This document shows, one piece after another, positions 9,681-13,613 of a stretch of DNA of 24,000 nucleotides. A model generated the notes under the pieces. The model did not search any database, was not told where the DNA came from, and saw nothing but the letters and a program-made list of their open reading frames with translations. The stretch's first letter is position 1; each line of letters begins with the position of its first letter. This DNA is from Candidatus Electronema sp. PJ (GTDB taxonomy: Bacteria > Desulfobacterota > Desulfobulbia > Desulfobulbales > Desulfobulbaceae), in NCBI RefSeq assembly GCF_048287395.1, contig NZ_JBLWEO010000022.1, positions 641 through 24,640 of the forward strand. The letters run 5' to 3'. Both the position numbers and the translations under genes were made by a program.

Positions 9681-10322
9681 CTAAAATTGATACAAGTTAA
9701 CGTAAAGAATGATCCCCAGGAAAACTGCGAGTACCAAACAGCTGATCAGCAAACTGCCTCCTCGCAGTACGGTATTCCAGCCAGGATGATTGATTCCTAC
9801 ACTTTGCAAGAGCGACCAAAAGCCGTGGCTGATGTGCAAAACCAGAGCCATAATGCCGACGGCATAGAGTGGGGCCAACAGAGGATTGGTCAATACCCTG
9901 CTTACTCTCTCTGCCACGGGAATGGCCTGATCGGTAAAACGCACTGTGGCCAGATGCAGCAGAAGAAAAGCGAGATTGAGCAGTCCGGTGTAGGGCATCG
10001 TGCGCACAGCCCAAGTTTGCGCAAGGGCGGACTTGCTGCCTGCATATCTGCCAGATTTCGCTTGGCGGTTACGGAGAAATAAACTGATCCCGGTGACGAT
10101 GTGCAGGAGAAAGACCGCCAGTAAGAAAAGTCCGGCAGTTGGTAGAAGAGGCCCAAGTGAACGCAGGTGTTCGGCATAGGCAGTGAATACTTCTCGACCT
10201 TGAAAAATCAAGCTATTGCCTGCGGCGTGAAAGACAAGGAAGCTGCCTAGGAGCAGGCCAGTCAGGGCCATGATGTATTTTCTGCCGAGCGAGGAAGTGC
10301 AGATCTGAACAAAGAGAGACAT
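9681..10322 (-). CDS. Succinate dehydrogenase/fumarate reductase-type dihaem cytochrome b membrane subunit (b558-like), orphan
   Basis: Five predicted TM helices, with His in four of them (LVFHAAGN, FLLHIVTG, LLLHLATV, LVLHISHGFW). The N-terminal SSLGRKYIMALTGLLLGSFLVFH resembles type-B SdhC/FrdC. The start is uncertain; I chose the ATG at 10322 (213 aa), while the track gives 10403. Confidence 0.65.
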   Translation of the reverse strand: MSLFVQICTSSLGRKYIMALTGLLLGSFLVFHAAGNSLIFQGREVFTAYAEHLRSLGPLLPTAGLFLLAVFLLHIVTGISLFLRNRQAKSGRYAGSKSALAQTWAVRTMPYTGLLNLAFLLLHLATVRFTDQAIPVAERVSRVLTNPLLAPLYAVGIMALVLHISHGFWSLLQSVGINHPGWNTVLRGGSLLISCLVLAVFLGIILYVNLYQF

Positions 10323-10440
10323 ACCTTGGCGAATGGCGGTTGAAGATAAAGGCGCAGCGAAAAACAGCCTTCCCATTTTAACCGGGAAACAGATATGCTG
10401 CAATTACCGCCTTTGTTTAGCCAGCCGTAGCTTTTTTATC

Positions 10441-10531: not shown

Positions 10532-11836
10532 ATGAGACTGAATGCACTGCTGCACGCTGCAATGCTGTTGATTTTATCGGCAGGGGCTGGCCAAGCTGCA
10601 AGCACTATCACCACGCTGGGACGGCATCCTTTTCATCAACCGCCCTTGCAGTCTGCGGATGATCTCAAGGCAATGATGCGAGAGCATCAGGATGAGATCA
10701 AAGAGGGGCTTGATAAGACAGGAAGCAAGAGTGCGCAGCTGTATAATCTCCTGGAAAAGCAGTTTCCCTTGGCCGAAATCAAGGAAATGCAGTACAAGCC
10801 GGGTGCTACCTTCCTCTGGATGTTCTTCAAGCGCAATGGTAAGGGTAATGTGAAGGTGGTCCGTGATCTTACCTGGGGTGGCAAAGAACCATTTGATGGC
10901 TACGAATTTCTCCTCACCGATAAGGAAAAATGCCAGAGCTATACAGTTACCGTGCCCAAGATATGCGGCAACGTAGCCTTACTGAAAACAGAGCAGCTCA
11001 AAGATTGTTCCAGCGGAGTCTGCGCTGATTGCCCGAAAGAATGCCCAGCAGAGTGTAGGTTAGATCCTCATGATTCGGAGAAGTGTCCGGTGGAATGTAA
11101 AAACTGCCGGGTGGAATGTTTGCCAGAGTTCACCTGTTATGATTTCCCTTTGGATTGCCCAGCAGTATGTCTCGATGATTTGGAAAAGTGCCCGGCAGAA
11201 TGTAAAGGTGTGCCTGAAGCGTGCATTACTGCCTGCCCGGACAGCGACTGTCCGCCAGTCACCTGCGCAGACTGCCCGCCTGACTGTGCTCTTCATCCTG
11301 ATTACTGTCCCGACGAGTGCAAGCTGCTTGACTGCCCAGTCTCTCCTGTTGTCAAAGAGCCGGTAAAAGAGCCATCCTTACCAGTACACTTTGTCGCTGA
11401 TCTCGGCTACTTTAAGCAGACGGATCCAGCCGATTACGTCTTTGGCCGAATTGGTGTGGAGTACAGTCCCTTTGCCTCAGACAGTGACTTTGAGAATATC
11501 TCCTTCCTCGGCATGATCGGTGTTGCGCCGCAAGTCAAAGGCGATGACGGCGACGACGTTCTGCTGTTGGATATGTTTGCCAACTACAACTGGACAGCAG
11601 GGGATATGAAGGGTTGGATCGGTTTAGGAGTAGGCGGTTGGATTACCTCTGGCGATGTGGATGATGACTCAGGAGATACAGATATCGATATCATGGCCAA
11701 TGTCGGTGCCCGGGTATATGGCGACCCTTCAGCCTTTAATGTCTCTGCCTTCTTGGAGATACGGAGTGCGGTTGACGAGTTCGATGGTCTTGCTGAGTAC
11801 GGACGTTTTGGCGTAGGGCTGCGTTGCCGGTTTTAA
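10532..11836 (+). CDS. Secreted cysteine-repeat protein 1 with C-terminal OMP-like beta-barrel domain
   Basis: SD GAGAGGAAAG lies before the ATG. Sec-type signal peptide is MRLNALLHAAMLLILSAGAGQA. A unique domain of about 130 aa comes first. It is followed by 23 Cys between aa 159 and 268, mostly as C-P-x-x-C (nt 11006-11335). The last ~150 aa have alternating hydrophobic residues and end in GLRCRF, i.e. a terminal Phe typical of outer-membrane barrels. Confidence 0.85.
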   Translation: MRLNALLHAAMLLILSAGAGQAASTITTLGRHPFHQPPLQSADDLKAMMREHQDEIKEGLDKTGSKSAQLYNLLEKQFPLAEIKEMQYKPGATFLWMFFKRNGKGNVKVVRDLTWGGKEPFDGYEFLLTDKEKCQSYTVTVPKICGNVALLKTEQLKDCSSGVCADCPKECPAECRLDPHDSEKCPVECKNCRVECLPEFTCYDFPLDCPAVCLDDLEKCPAECKGVPEACITACPDSDCPPVTCADCPPDCALHPDYCPDECKLLDCPVSPVVKEPVKEPSLPVHFVADLGYFKQTDPADYVFGRIGVEYSPFASDSDFENISFLGMIGVAPQVKGDDGDDVLLLDMFANYNWTAGDMKGWIGLGVGGWITSGDVDDDSGDTDIDIMANVGARVYGDPSAFNVSAFLEIRSAVDEFDGLAEYGRFGVGLRCRF

Positions 11837-11927: not shown

Positions 11928-11956
11928 TTGCCAGATTGCGGCAGAAATTATATAAC
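11928..11956 (+). promoter_or_regulatory. Candidate sigma70-type promoter of Cys-repeat gene 2
   Basis: TTGCCA (11928-11933), a 17-nt spacer, then TATAAC (11951-11956). The surrounding sequence is conserved with 10425-10470. Confidence 0.45.
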
Positions 11957-12059
11957 AAACCAATAATAGCTGACCGCTCATTTCGCTTGATTTTTTTCGG
12001 AGATGCCCGGAAATCAGGCGGCAGGGATGGAAAAATTAACAGAAACGGAGAGTTGGAAG

Positions 12060-13115
12060 ATGAAGACAAAGATGTTGCTACAGACTGCGGCACTGTTGCT
12101 GCTGTCCGCAGGTGTTGTTCATGCTGGAGGAAAGTTCGGCAAAAAGCATTGGACCTGCGATGATTGCTCGCCAGAGTGCCTGCAAAATCCCTATGCGAAA
12201 GGCTGCCCTGATATCTGTAAATCTCCTGAATGTCAGACCTCCTGCGAAAAATGCCCGGCAACCTGCAAGCAGCATCCTGGCGCACCAGGCTGCCCGGAGA
12301 TCTGCAAAGACGTGCAATGCCAATCCTGTAGTGACTGCACTCCTGAATGCAAAAAGACTCCTGCTGATCCAACATGCCCGGATATCTGTAAGGACATTAA
12401 GTGCTTCTCCTGTGACGATTGCTCAGTGGACTGCATCATTAACCCGCAGGGCAAAGACTGCCCAGCAGTGTGCGCAGATCTCAATTGCAATGTCTGCGAT
12501 AAGTTCCCCAAAGACTGCCCAGCAACCTGCAAGGACAACCCGAACGATCCTGACAAATGCCGTCCTGAGTGCAAGGATGTTCCTGAAAAATGCCTGATGG
12601 CACCAGTTGATCCTACGCAACAAGACCCTACCCAACAAGAGCCTCCTTCTGAAGCAGGCCCCCTGCGCTTTGTTGGCGATCTTGGCTACTTTAAGCAGAC
12701 TGATCCCGCTGATTACGTCTTTGGCCGGATTGGTGTGGAGTACAGCCCCTTTGCCCCTGGCAGCCGCTTTGAAAACGTTTCCTTCCTGGGTATGATCGGT
12801 GTTGCCCCGCAAGTCAAAGGCGATGACGGCGATGACGCTCTGCTGTTGGATGTATTTGCCAACTACAACTGGACAGCAGGCGATGTCAATGGCTGGGTCG
12901 GTTTAGGTGTAGGCGGCTGGATTACCTCTGGCGATGTGGATGACGATTCAGGGGATACTGACATTGATGTTATGGTCAATGCAGGTGCTCGGATCTATGG
13001 CGATCCATCAGCCTTCAACGTTTCTGCTTTCTTGGAGATCCGCAGCGCAGTTGATGAGTTCGATGGTCTTGCTGAGTACGGACGCTTCGGTGGTGGTCTG
13101 CGCTTCAAGTTCTAA
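12060..13115 (+). CDS. Secreted cysteine-repeat protein 2 (five 28-aa six-Cys modules) with C-terminal OMP-like beta-barrel domain
   Basis: The ATG at 12060 has GGAG 9 nt upstream, and the track start at 12003 is less likely. Signal peptide is MKTKMLLQTAALLLLSAGVVHA. There are 30 Cys in about 146 aa (nt 12156-12593). A PTQQDPTQQEPP linker follows. The C-terminal 150 aa are about 88% identical to protein 1 and end in GLRFKF. Confidence 0.85.
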   Translation: MKTKMLLQTAALLLLSAGVVHAGGKFGKKHWTCDDCSPECLQNPYAKGCPDICKSPECQTSCEKCPATCKQHPGAPGCPEICKDVQCQSCSDCTPECKKTPADPTCPDICKDIKCFSCDDCSVDCIINPQGKDCPAVCADLNCNVCDKFPKDCPATCKDNPNDPDKCRPECKDVPEKCLMAPVDPTQQDPTQQEPPSEAGPLRFVGDLGYFKQTDPADYVFGRIGVEYSPFAPGSRFENVSFLGMIGVAPQVKGDDGDDALLLDVFANYNWTAGDVNGWVGLGVGGWITSGDVDDDSGDTDIDVMVNAGARIYGDPSAFNVSAFLEIRSAVDEFDGLAEYGRFGGGLRFKF

Positions 13116-13164: not shown

Positions 13165-13196
13165 AAGGCACGGGGTGAGAATCCTGTGCCTTTTTG
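13165..13196 (+). terminator. Rho-independent terminator of Cys-repeat gene 2
   Basis: AAGGCAC (13165-13171) pairs with GTGCCTT (13186-13192) around a 14-nt loop, followed by a T-run to 13195. Confidence 0.65.
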
Positions 13197-13289: not shown

Positions 13290-13613
13290 TTACTTCTTTT
13301 CCTCAGCCGCCAAAGACAGAATCCAGGTGGCAATCGCCTTGGCATCAGCCTCGCTCACATTGGCCATCGGAGCCATCATCTTGCCGGGACCTGTTGCATC
13401 CTTGCTGCCCTTTTGGATCACGGTCACAATTTTTTGCTCGCCCTCTTTGTCAGCTGCAAACTTCTTGCTGATATCCTTCATGCTGGGTCCCATGCCTGCT
13501 TTGTCCAGCTGATGGCAGACCATGCAGTTCTTCTTTGCCAATTCCTCGCTGGCAAATGCAGAGCCAGAAACCAACAGACAGGCAACGGCACAACCAAGTA
13601 ATGCGTACTTCAT
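13290..13613 (-). CDS. Periplasmic class I cytochrome c, c551/c8-like
   Basis: Signal peptide MKYALLGCAVACLLVSGSAFA. There is a single CMVCH haem site and a distal Met region KMMAPMANVSEADAKAIATWILSL, which parallels Pseudomonas c551 (PMPPNAVSDDEAQTLAKWVLS). AAGGAG lies 7 nt before the ATG. Confidence 0.88.
   Translation of the reverse strand: MKYALLGCAVACLLVSGSAFASEELAKKNCMVCHQLDKAGMGPSMKDISKKFAADKEGEQKIVTVIQKGSKDATGPGKMMAPMANVSEADAKAIATWILSLAAEEKK

Follow-up and report, generated by a model that had tools for sequence, protein, structure and literature searches.

A cable-bacteria protein family with a six-cysteine module array, a candidate periplasmic rod on a predicted outer-membrane barrel

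A stretch of 24,000 nucleotides from Candidatus Electronema sp. PJ (contig NZ_JBLWEO010000022.1; referred to as the window) contains a gene, here called P2, whose product carries tandem modules of six cysteines each. An initial annotation, made from the sequence and its open reading frames, had left three readings for these cysteines side by side, namely a disulfide-knotted stalk, metallothionein-like metal clusters and a dithiol relay. The locus thus raises the question of what kind of protein P2 is, where it would reside in the cell, and what its cysteines would do there.

The P2 gene and its cysteine modules

P2 is a real gene: its exact 351-aa product is present in RefSeq (WP_417909007.1, “hypothetical protein”, Ca. 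Electronema sp. PJ) and its cysteines are conserved across 26 orthologs. Translation begins at position 12060 (ATG; MKTKML) and not at the upstream ATG at 12003; MK(T/L)K is the start of all P2 orthologs, a conserved GGAGAG Shine-Dalgarno sequence is located 8–9 nt 5′ of the P2 start, and the 370-aa version beginning at 12003 was absent from the sequence collection searched. No sigma-54 promoter was found upstream of P2. The signal peptide had been described as Sec-type rather than twin-arginine, and correctly so, as it has no RR motif; a lipobox Cys was not seen on inspection of the sequence either. AlphaFold2 (AF2) predicted a helix at aa 4–16 of the signal peptide with a pLDDT below 50. All features are listed in Table 1.

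Table 1. Coordinates of P2, its parts and its paralog P1 in the window
Feature	Residues (aa)	Nucleotides	Strand	Remarks
P2 gene	351 aa + stop	12060..13115	+	ORF; WP_417909007.1
Signal peptide, Sec-type	1-22	12060..12125	+	MKTKMLLQTAALLLLSAGVVHA/GG; read from sequence
Module 1	33-58	12156..12233	+	CDDCSPECLQNPYAKGCPDICKSPEC; Cys invariant or ≥90% conserved
Module 2	62-87	12243..12320	+	CEKCPATCKQHPGAPGCPEICKDVQC; Cys invariant or ≥90% conserved
Module 3	90-115	12327..12404	+	CSDCTPECKKTPADPTCPDICKDIKC; Cys invariant or ≥90% conserved
Module 4	118-143	12411..12488	+	CDDCSVDCIINPQGKDCPAVCADLNC; Cys invariant or ≥90% conserved
Module 5, expanded	146-178	12495..12593	+	CDKFPKDCPATCKDNPNDPDKCRPECKDVPEKC; spacing 6-3-9-3-6
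Flexible Pro/Gln/Glu linker, 22 aa	179-200	12594..12659	+	AF2 pLDDT <50 at aa 184-198
Predicted 8-stranded outer-membrane β-barrel	201-351	12660..13112	+	AF2, Foldseek; C-terminus GLRFKF
Terminator-like hairpin		13165..13192	+	12 bp stem + T tract; 3′ of P2 stop
Paralog P1	434 aa	10532..11836	+	WP_417909006.1; signal peptide, N-domain, linker, barrel
P1 CPxxC-rich linker	159-268	11006..11335	+	23 Cys; degenerate

The translation of 12060–13112 (+) was scanned for the motif C..C...C.{8}CP..C.{4}C, which matches exactly four times. The scan thereby reproduces the four 28-aa modules of identical cysteine spacing, here called canonical, that had been read by eye, and the fifth, looser copy is likewise a genuine six-Cys unit (C-x6-C-x3-C-x9-C-x3-C-x6-C). 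Position 12156 is the first Cys codon of the array and 12593 the end of the last. The earlier estimate of 30 Cys, or about 20%, agrees with the count of 30 in 152 residues (19.7%), and the positions in between are rich in Pro, Asp, Glu and Lys as described (P 20, D 19, K 16, E 7). When the mature N-terminal region was shuffled 200,000 times with its composition preserved, the motif was absent from 199,514 shuffles, occurred once in 484 and twice in 2; three or more matches were never obtained, compared with four in P2. The modules share 46–62% identity at the DNA and 32–50% at the protein level, and Tandem Repeats Finder (TRF) detected no 84-bp array in the module region. Thus, the duplications are old and do not stem from recent slippage.

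All 30 Cys of P2 are invariant or at least 90% conserved among the 26 orthologs, which have 48–86% identity. Among the other positions, D3 (90%), E7 (71%), N11 (73%), P12 (98%), Y13 (56%), P18 (98%) and I/V20 (85%) are conserved in 110 canonical modules. Module 3 is the most conserved of all, with an invariant CPDIC-x-D. Module 5 keeps six Cys and the twin CX3C core, C2-x3-C3-x8-C4-x3-C5, which is common to all five modules (x9 in module 5); its spacing is the same in nearly all orthologs, two of which have x8 instead of x9. Only gaps of 2, 3, 4, 6, 8 and 9 residues separate the Cys of P2, and neither CC nor CxC occurs. Outside the core the spacing is less uniform: the gap C1–C2 is x2 in canonical modules and x6 in module 5, C4–C5 is x3 but x5 in two orthologs, and the junction C6–C1′ is x2, x3, x4 or x6 among modules and orthologs. 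The number of Cys in the rod part of P2-type orthologs is always even (30, 34, 36, 44 or 48) if a single stray Cys each is disregarded in two of them. Gain and loss of modules proceed in units of six or four Cys, and in one ortholog two extra Cys arrived together. That the array is older than the split of Electronema and Electrothrix, with each module keeping its own identity, is strongly supported.

Databases were searched for relatives of P2. According to the initial annotation, its proposal would be refuted if the module matched a disulfide-rich repeat family already known for a structural role; no such match was found in Pfam, NCBIfam, PDB, BFVD or 1.84 billion representative proteins. P2 has no match at all in Pfam and NCBIfam at E-values up to 1, and this includes EGF, LDL-A, TNFR, furin-like and TSP3 repeats as well as the Myxococcus Cys-rich repeat TIGR02232. 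A profile search of PDB returned only a chance match to STE50 (E 0.22), and Foldseek with the model of the Cys rod gave no match in PDB and BFVD at E up to 10. When the 1.84 billion representatives were searched with an HMM of the 152-aa region, only two clusters were retrieved, both of them family members; a single 28-aa module is too short to reach significance in this search. Matches to the barrel profile were limited to cable bacteria or nameless metagenome proteins. All named matches (among 76 homologs, 19 genome loci and 30 barrel-profile matches) belong to Electronema, Electrothrix or early cable-bacterium assemblies and MAGs, the latter deposited as “Desulfobulbus sp.” or “Desulfobulbaceae bacterium”, and no Electronema or Electrothrix species genome returned by the scan lacks the family. 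Our literature search found no relevant paper joining cable bacteria with “cysteine-rich” or “metallothionein”, and nothing on Dsb systems in cable bacteria. We conclude that P2 is a real protein that has not been described before and that occurs only in the electricity-conducting cable bacteria.

Membrane anchor, paralog and genomic neighbourhood

The C-terminal barrel of P2 is absent from the earlier finding on the Cys modules. Structure prediction strongly supports that the last 150 residues form an OmpX/OmpA-type 8-stranded barrel in the outer membrane. AF2, run on the alignment of 26 orthologs, placed strands at residues 202–213, 217–228, 240–254, 260–273, 276–289, 301–314, 320–330 and 342–350, with a pLDDT mostly above 90 across them. 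The best PDB matches of this model in Foldseek were OmpX, NspA, the N-terminal domain of OprF and the transmembrane domain of OmpA (E 7e-5 to 3e-4, TM-score (target) 0.53–0.68, probability 1.00). P2 ends with a β-signal, G-x-x-F-x-F (GLRFKF), the final residue of which varies in orthologs (F, Y, H, M, Q, L or R). None of the curated outer-membrane protein families in Pfam and NCBIfam (OmpA_membrane, OMP_b-brl, Ail_Lom and others) matched P2 at E up to 1. Autotransporters are characterized by a 12-stranded barrel with a pore-spanning helix, whereas the P2 barrel has 8 strands in about 150 aa, and the translocators of NalP and Hbp matched it weakly (E ≥0.01, TM about 0.2). In 8-stranded barrels of the OmpA/OmpX type both termini are periplasmic and there is no pore for a passenger domain. 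With both barrel ends facing the periplasm, the Cys rod would therefore stay in the periplasm.

Barrel and Cys region are joined by the linker, in which a 15-bp tandem repeat (12612–12644; TRF) encodes DPTQQ twice. Linker length ranges from ~20 to ~90 aa among P2 orthologs, and linkers are 50–65 aa longer in the Electrothrix gigas-type orthologs. In the paralog P1, a signal peptide is followed by an orphan N-domain (about 135 aa), a CPxxC-rich linker of degenerate pattern and a barrel that is 87% identical to that of P2. Mature P1 has 25 Cys here and 23 in three orthologs. Its linker region is Cys-rich in Electronema and consists of VPGPERIVEK repeats instead in Electrothrix. A search with the P1 N-domain gave one match, in another cable bacterium, and no functional lead.

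All nine Electrothrix species whose flanking sequence was long enough show the gene order P2, ferredoxin, nikM-nikL-nikK-nikQ, and the linkage persists in YB6, where the upstream region is rearranged, and in E. gigas, where the locus has lost nikMQ. The nikMLKQ genes are named as the nickel importer in PMC11247825, and the “hyp.” gene that the legend of its Fig. 2C lists at this place is probably the P2-family gene. None of the nine Electronema genomes, this window included, has the nik linkage. Genes flanking the locus in Electronema encode an orphan dihaem cytochrome b and a monohaem cytochrome c, and these cytochrome neighbours are Electronema-specific. Other genes of the window are trpC, dnaK, grpE, mltG (YceG), a DEAD-box helicase, ahcY and folE2, together with a D-Ala-D-Ala carboxypeptidase and a radical SAM protein; as most are housekeeping genes, the neighbours were dropped as a functional clue. 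Co-regulation of P2 with nik was considered and rejected: a NikR-type box was not found, none of the k-mers conserved ahead of nikM was seen again ahead of P2, and a riboswitch was detected neither in the Electrothrix locus nor anywhere in the window.

State of the cysteines and role of the rod

Modelled alone, the Cys region of P2 was predicted by AF2 as an ordered array of short helices (pLDDT 86.3, pTM 0.61), which cover both CX3C motifs in every module. The conserved N-P-Y turns and Ile/Leu positions likewise point to a folded domain. However, AF2 also yields ordered holo-like shapes for structural metal sites, so that a high pLDDT leaves metal possible. Since the Cys of P2 are invariant, they give no covariation signal on pairing. 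Of the three readings offered initially, the disulfide stalk fits best, owing to the barrel anchor, the ordered AF2 array, the conserved turns and the even Cys counts, whereas the metallothionein reading fails on the features tested.

Our tentative preference, held at slightly less than even confidence, is that P2 is an outer-membrane-anchored periplasmic rod exclusive to cable bacteria, with modules cross-linked most likely by disulfides and a role as a scaffold. It is strongly supported that the Sec signal exports P2, that the barrel lies in the outer membrane and so keeps the N-terminal part periplasmic, and that the disordered 22-aa Pro/Gln linker connects the barrel with the 150-aa module array. 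Each 28-aa module may fold into a short helix-loop-helix hairpin on its twin CX3C, in the order C2-x3-C3, N-P-Y turn, C4-P-x2-C5, and would be held by three nested cross-links (C3–C4, C2–C5, C1–C6), most likely disulfides, a pairing derived only from the motif and the predicted secondary structure. As no more than 2–3 residues lie between modules, the array would act as one stiff, acidic rod, with the linker as its flexible leash. Such a rod would not be an enzyme; it would serve as an envelope scaffold or tether, reaching from the outer membrane into the conductive-fibre compartment and binding a partner there, be it fibre, sheath or peptidoglycan. The even Cys numbers and the gain or loss of modules in units support disulfides, and the swapped P1 linker and the longer E. 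gigas-type linkers support a role as spacer or tether. Many cells of cable bacteria live in sulfidic sediment, where disulfides are less secure. Moreover, the mature part of P1 has an odd number of Cys, so intramolecular disulfides cannot account for every Cys across the wider family. Also, the nickel importer locus adjoining P2 in every Electrothrix genome examined is left unexplained by a purely structural role.

A rival reading is a metal-thiolate array, in which the six Cys of a module, e.g., its two pairs of CX3C, would serve as ligands of Ni(II) or Cu/Zn, and the rod tethered to the outer membrane would either buffer or pass on nickel of the periplasm or be linked directly, by metal-sulfur or S-S bonds, to the nickel-dithiolene nanoribbons of the conductive fibres. 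We consider this unlikely on balance. The family is confined to organisms with about 18 million Ni atoms per cell in periplasmic fibres, and the study that reports this explicitly models Ni(ett) oligomers whose ends are capped through S-S bonds with Cys (PMC13534509). The odd Cys counts of P1 and a Cys content of 20% with CxxC and CxxxC spacings also fit, and the nik locus beside P2, which outlasts both changes described above, lends metal binding circumstantial backing. Against it weigh the absence of that linkage from all nine Electronema genomes, the lack of a regulatory motif common to the upstream regions of P2 and nikM, and the negative search for a NikR box. Further, a metal chelate needs fixed spacing, and the varying C1–C2, C4–C5 and C6–C1′ gaps in modules and orthologs speak against one; the conserved acidic residues beside Cys would disfavour anionic tetrathiolate sites, the ordered prediction with conserved turns is unlike metallothioneins, and in published spectroscopy the ligands of Ni have been assigned as dithiolenes rather than Cys (PMC13534509). 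Much less probable is a redox carrier, with the Cys shuttling electrons by dithiol-disulfide exchange or carrying sulfur as persulfide or polysulfide in the periplasm while sulfide is oxidised. The host does oxidise sulfide electrogenically, there are CxxC motifs at module junctions, and two cytochromes flank the Electronema locus; yet these cytochromes are Electronema-specific, the junction CxxC is not conserved (x2, x3, x4 or x6), no thioredoxin-like or rhodanese-like fold or family matched, and relays of haem or metal are fast in comparison with an exchange between thiols and disulfides along a rod.

Junctions 2/3 and 3/4 read C6-x2-C1-x2-C2-x3-C3 with a CP 8 residues further on, so that a chain of [4Fe-4S] clusters in ferredoxin-like CxxCxxCxxxC sites was considered as well. 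It was rejected and is in our view barely conceivable: the motif is broken at junctions 1/2 and 4/5 and in orthologs, no Fer4 family matched in Pfam even at E up to 1, the P2 sequence is highly polar, and the Sec route exports an unfolded chain, with no Tat signal to provide a cofactor-compatible path. We know of no route for periplasmic Fe-S insertion after such export. Raman spectroscopy did not find Fe-S in the fibres of cable bacteria. Finally, the rod might be displayed outside the cell, as an adhesin or as anchor of the surface layer that has been proposed to lie beyond the outer membrane of cable bacteria (PMC11976967). Acidic stalks rich in Cys and Pro are a typical feature of surface proteins. 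This placement is nevertheless highly improbable, given a barrel of the OmpA/OmpX type, for which two periplasmic termini and the lack of a passenger pore are established, and given the weak similarity to autotransporter translocators (E about 0.01, TM about 0.2).

The periplasmic rod is of interest for the centimetre-long nickel-sulfur wires of these organisms. A 2026 structural paper gives the cofactor of the wires and names no protein, and in 2025 a search for periplasmic nickel proteins that relied on annotation yielded nothing but a NikA-like binding protein. Among proteins that might help to build, hold or load the wires, the P2 family is a concrete candidate for a part of the wire compartment, because it is confined to cable bacteria, occurs in all Electronema and Electrothrix species genomes returned, would be located in that compartment, contains 20% Cys at invariant spacing in its rod and neighbours a nickel importer in Electrothrix. 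It is conceivable, if rather doubtful, that the nickel-dithiolene wires have their protein partner in the Cys rod, with its thiols capping, templating or anchoring Ni(ett) nanoribbons by S-S or Ni-S bonds, or delivering periplasmic nickel. If so, the P2 family together with P1 would be the first proteins to be identified as part of the conduction machinery of cable bacteria. Even if P2 is only a disulfide-locked envelope strut, the 28-aa module represents an orphan fold family with no relative in PDB or among 1.84 billion representatives, and would be a compact, rigid building block.

Comparison with known systems

Metallothioneins resemble P2 in being high in Cys and polar, with no hydrophobic core to speak of, and the host of P2 handles exceptional amounts of nickel. 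In contrast to them, P2 is exported and membrane-anchored, contains no CC or CxC, and has conserved aromatic, Pro and Asn turn residues besides a confident ordered prediction; no metallothionein profile of Pfam or NCBIfam matched it. A twin C-x3-C on short helices, as predicted for the P2 modules, is also found in small Tim proteins and plant α-hairpinin peptides, where two nested disulfides clamp the hairpin. The P2 module differs by a loop of 8 residues, helices of 4–5 residues, an additional Cys pair (C1, C6) and the tandem arrangement of units, and homology to zf-Tim10_DDP or α-hairpinins was not detected with Pfam, PDB sequences or Foldseek at E up to 10.

For the barrel (aa 201–351), the closest structures are OmpX (E 7e-5) and NspA (E 1.2e-4), at 14–15% sequence identity. 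Both are without an N-terminal extension, and P2 has short, poly-acidic external loops. The overall layout is like that of OmpA/OprF-type tethers, which consist of an 8-stranded barrel, a flexible Pro-rich hinge and a periplasmic layer-binding part, and OmpA-family proteins with thrombospondin-type-3 repeat linkers share with P2 an acidic, repeat-containing periplasmic segment. However, the domain order is reversed in P2, with the barrel C-terminal; there is no Pfam match to the peptidoglycan-binding domain OmpA_C, to TSP_3 or to OmpA_membrane, and the periplasmic part is instead the orphan Cys module array. Chlamydial OmcB and OmcA are, like P2, Cys-rich, periplasm-facing and associated with the outer membrane. 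OmcB has neither fixed six-Cys modules nor a barrel anchor, and is related to P2 neither in sequence nor by Pfam. Disulfide cross-links of OmcB and OmcA give the chlamydial envelope its resistance to detergent, to which the SDS-resistant fibre skeleton of cable bacteria is analogous.

Cysteine modules, their age and their relatives

Translated from the ATG at 12060, the reading frame of P2, the gene for a Cys-module rod joined by a linker to a barrel (+ strand, window 12003-13115), shows four perfect matches to C-x2-C-x3-C-x8-C-P-x2-C-x4-C, as the initial annotation had described, followed by the fifth, looser copy which it had also seen. The first and last Cys codons of these modules delimit window 12156-12593. 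In 200,000 composition-preserving shuffles, the pattern matched at most twice per shuffle, versus four times in P2. The 152-residue Cys region holds 30 Cys (19.7%, agreeing with the earlier count and the estimate of about 20%), and its reported richness in Pro, Asp, Glu and Lys corresponds to 20, 19, 7 and 16 residues, respectively. Across 26 aligned orthologs, conservation of each of the 30 Cys is complete or no lower than 90%, and 110 canonical modules yield the consensus C-[DE]-D-C-[ST]-x-E-C-x-x-N-P-Y-x-x-G-C-P-x-[IV]-C-[KR]-[DE]-x-x-C. The P2 modules share only 46-62% DNA identity and 32-50% protein identity among themselves, and no 84-bp tandem array was reported there by Tandem Repeats Finder; the repeats are therefore old. 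Further, each P2 module of the window finds its best match in the module at the same position of the Electrothrix orthologs, so that the array is older than the Electronema/Electrothrix split and its modules have kept their own individuality.

Positions of the P2 modules and of neighbouring features
Feature	Position	Strand	Remark
Module 1	P2 residues 33-58	+	exact spacing match
Module 2	P2 residues 62-87	+	exact spacing match
Module 3	P2 residues 90-115	+	exact spacing match
Module 4	P2 residues 118-143	+	exact spacing match
Module 5	P2 residues 146-178	+	six Cys, spacing 6-3-9-3-6
Dihaem cytochrome b, SdhC b558 family	window 9681-10403	-	TIGR02046, 135.8 bits vs cutoff 96
P2-ferredoxin-nik neighbourhood	P2 ortholog locus L001, 9482-13062; also L004, L005, L016-L019, L021, L024, L026		

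A known disulfide-rich repeat family to which the module could belong was searched for and none emerged: P2 had no match in Pfam and NCBIfam (E up to 1), the module array none of meaning among PDB sequences, and the rod model none by Foldseek in PDB and BFVD (E up to 10). A profile of the rod region retrieved just two clusters from 1.84 billion representative proteins, both members of the P2 family. Using phmmer with the whole of P2, 76 proteins were found, whose named sources are Candidatus Electronema, Candidatus Electrothrix or "Desulfobulbus sp." assemblies, which we take to be early cable-bacterium single-filament genomes. Among 185,579 species genomes scanned, 19 loci emerged, all in Electronema, Electrothrix or Desulfobulbaceae MAGs, and a barrel-only profile found no relative from outside cable bacteria among named sources. 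The module is an orphan in both sequence and fold and is confined to cable bacteria; no description of it was found in the literature searched.

The rod varies in whole units. Ahead of the barrel, some P2-type orthologs have between one and three additional six-Cys modules; those of the Electrothrix gigas group have a four-Cys remnant module, one ortholog gained two extra Cys together, and the linkers measure roughly 20 to 90 residues. The even Cys count noted earlier holds for the rods of all P2-type proteins once one stray Cys apiece is discounted in two orthologs. The metagenome ortholog P0016 (400 aa) has two additional Cys, one immediately ahead of module 1 and the other in the linker that follows the rod. 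Its Cys number remains even, but the distance between the two speaks against an obvious bond within one molecule; head-to-tail linkage between molecules is one possibility. The gene directly upstream encodes the paralog P1 (window 10532-11836, +, WP_417909006.1), whose barrel is 87% identical to that of P2, preceded by an N-terminal orphan domain (about 135 aa) and a degenerate CPxxC-rich linker with 23 Cys. In Electronema P1 paralogs, the Cys number of the mature part is odd. Electrothrix P1 orthologs retain N-domain and barrel and have VPGPERIVEK repeats or a short linker in place of the Cys linker; at least in P1, the part between N-domain and barrel acts like a spacer that can be exchanged. 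The repeats carry the NCBI label "IMCp domain" and resemble alveolins.

Export and membrane anchor

The RefSeq record WP_417909007.1 ("hypothetical protein", Candidatus Electronema sp. PJ) is identical to the 351-aa P2, unlike a 370-aa version starting at 12003, which is not on record. Residues 1-22 read as a Sec-type signal peptide without lipobox or twin arginine, the export route originally proposed. The leader (window about 11940-12059; upstream of the orthologs in loci L001-L024) is conserved in both genera, with an AT-rich element TTATATA...AAAAAATTTTAC about 100 nt upstream and a strong Shine-Dalgarno sequence, AAGGAGAG, 8-9 nt before the ATG, which suggests a conserved promoter and efficient translation.

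AlphaFold2 was applied to the alignment of 26 orthologs. In the whole-protein model, the Cys region forms short helices (pLDDT 80-88), residues 184-198 are disordered (pLDDT <50) and residues 202-350 form eight strands (pLDDT mostly >90). Modelled alone (pLDDT 86.3, pTM 0.61), the Cys region shows a short helix at both CX3C motifs in every module, so that the core would be a twin CX3C helix-turn-helix with one further Cys on either side. The C-terminal part matches OmpX, NspA, the OprF N-terminal domain and the OmpA transmembrane domain (Foldseek, PDB; E 7e-5 to 3e-4, TM-score on target 0.53-0.68), and its end, GLRFKF, is a typical barrel-assembly signal; the final residue of the orthologs is not always aromatic. 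In 8-stranded barrels, as established for OmpA and OmpX, both termini are periplasmic and there is no passenger pore. The Cys array should therefore lie in the periplasm, suspended on a flexible Pro/Gln tether anchored in the outer membrane. Between rod and barrel, a 15-bp tandem repeat (2.2 copies, window 12612-12644) encodes DPTQQ-DPTQQ, which suggests that the tether changed in length recently. Two conserved poly-acidic barrel loops, KGDDGDD (aa 253-259, window 12816-12836) and SGDVDDDSGDTDID (aa 290-303, window 12927-12968), would face outward, given a periplasmic N-terminus, and may be divalent-cation sites.

Genomic neighbourhood

In all nine Electrothrix species with enough flank (aestuarii, GW3-4, YB6, laxa, aarhusensis, gigas, marina and two further MAGs), P2 is followed by a small ferredoxin gene on the other strand and by CbiM, HI_1622_C, DUF4198 and CbiQ genes, a cluster described as the nickel importer nikMLKQ (PMC11247825). 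The "hyp." gene named in this neighbourhood in the legend of Fig. 2C there is probably the P2 ortholog. The linkage persists in YB6 despite upstream rearrangement; in E. gigas, P2-fd-nikLK is retained and nikMQ is absent from the locus. No nik genes lie near P2 in nine Electronema genomes including the window. The search for a regulatory link between P2 and nik yielded neither a common motif nor a NikR box or riboswitch. The fd-nikM intergenic region is strongly conserved (L001 9695-10103 and equivalents in six other Electrothrix loci), with a TTGACA-17-TATAGT promoter and a GTGTTAC half-site, to which most species add the palindrome GTCAGTACATGTACTGAC; it has no Rfam match and no motif in common with the P2 upstream region.

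The genes of the window are mostly housekeeping. An orphan sdhC_b558-type dihaem cytochrome b gene lies divergently upstream of P1/P2 in seven of nine Electronema genomes including the window, where neither sdhA nor sdhB adjoins it; its product could be a quinol-linked membrane electron carrier. Convergent with P2 is a gene for a monohaem c-type cytochrome with signal peptide (window 13290-13613, -), separated from it by back-to-back hairpin terminators (13165-13192, +; 13255-13229, -). In Electronema aureum GS (L009 4326-5351, -), the P2 ortholog has as its divergent neighbour a gene for a protein with a molybdopterin-binding MoCF_biosynth domain; proteins of this family handle a dithiolene cofactor. 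The arrangement was seen in a single genome and could be fortuitous.

Function of the rod and comparison with known systems

The initial annotation left a choice between disulfide stalk, metal-thiolate clusters and dithiol relay, and the analysis supports this open reading in part. We tentatively favor the stalk, at a little under an even chance: P2 would be a stiff, outer-membrane-tethered rod serving as scaffold or tether within the periplasm that bears the fibres. Three nested cross-links, predicted to pair C3 with C4, C2 with C5 and C1 with C6 (numbering the six Cys of a module), would hold each hairpin closed and are most likely disulfides. Disulfides are favored by the even parity and the gain and loss of Cys in whole units, by the variable spacing within would-be chelate motifs (C1-C2, C4-C5, and C6 to the first Cys of the next module), by conserved turn and core residues with acidic flanks, and by the confident, ordered prediction of the Cys region. 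However, AlphaFold2 can yield holo-like metal sites too, and a purely structural role leaves the nik neighbourhood unexplained; both points count against disulfides.

A metal-thiolate role, including a rod that bonds to or loads nickel-dithiolene ribbons, is possible but rather unlikely. Capping of Ni(ett) oligomers by Cys S-S bonds was modelled in a Nat Commun 2026 paper and its preprint, in which no protein was identified. Periplasmic nickel proteins were sought in a 2025 EMBO Reports study, which was annotation-based and does not mention the P2 family. We regard a thiol or persulfide relay as improbable and surface display of the rod as about equally so; an Fe-S chain is hardly credible.

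P2 gives researchers on cable bacteria a concrete candidate that can be put to the test and that should reside in the right compartment. Every profile-based test of family membership failed, and P2 is assigned to none of the OmpA-type, small Tim, alpha-hairpinin or chlamydial protein families. P2 combines a rod of Cys repeats with an OmpX-like anchor; the fold of the anchor is known, and the repeat module is an orphan. OmpA-type tethers follow a similar overall logic of barrel, hinge and periplasmic binding part, small Tim proteins and alpha-hairpinins resemble the twin CX3C core in motif only, and the chlamydial Cys-rich envelope proteins provide a functional analogy.
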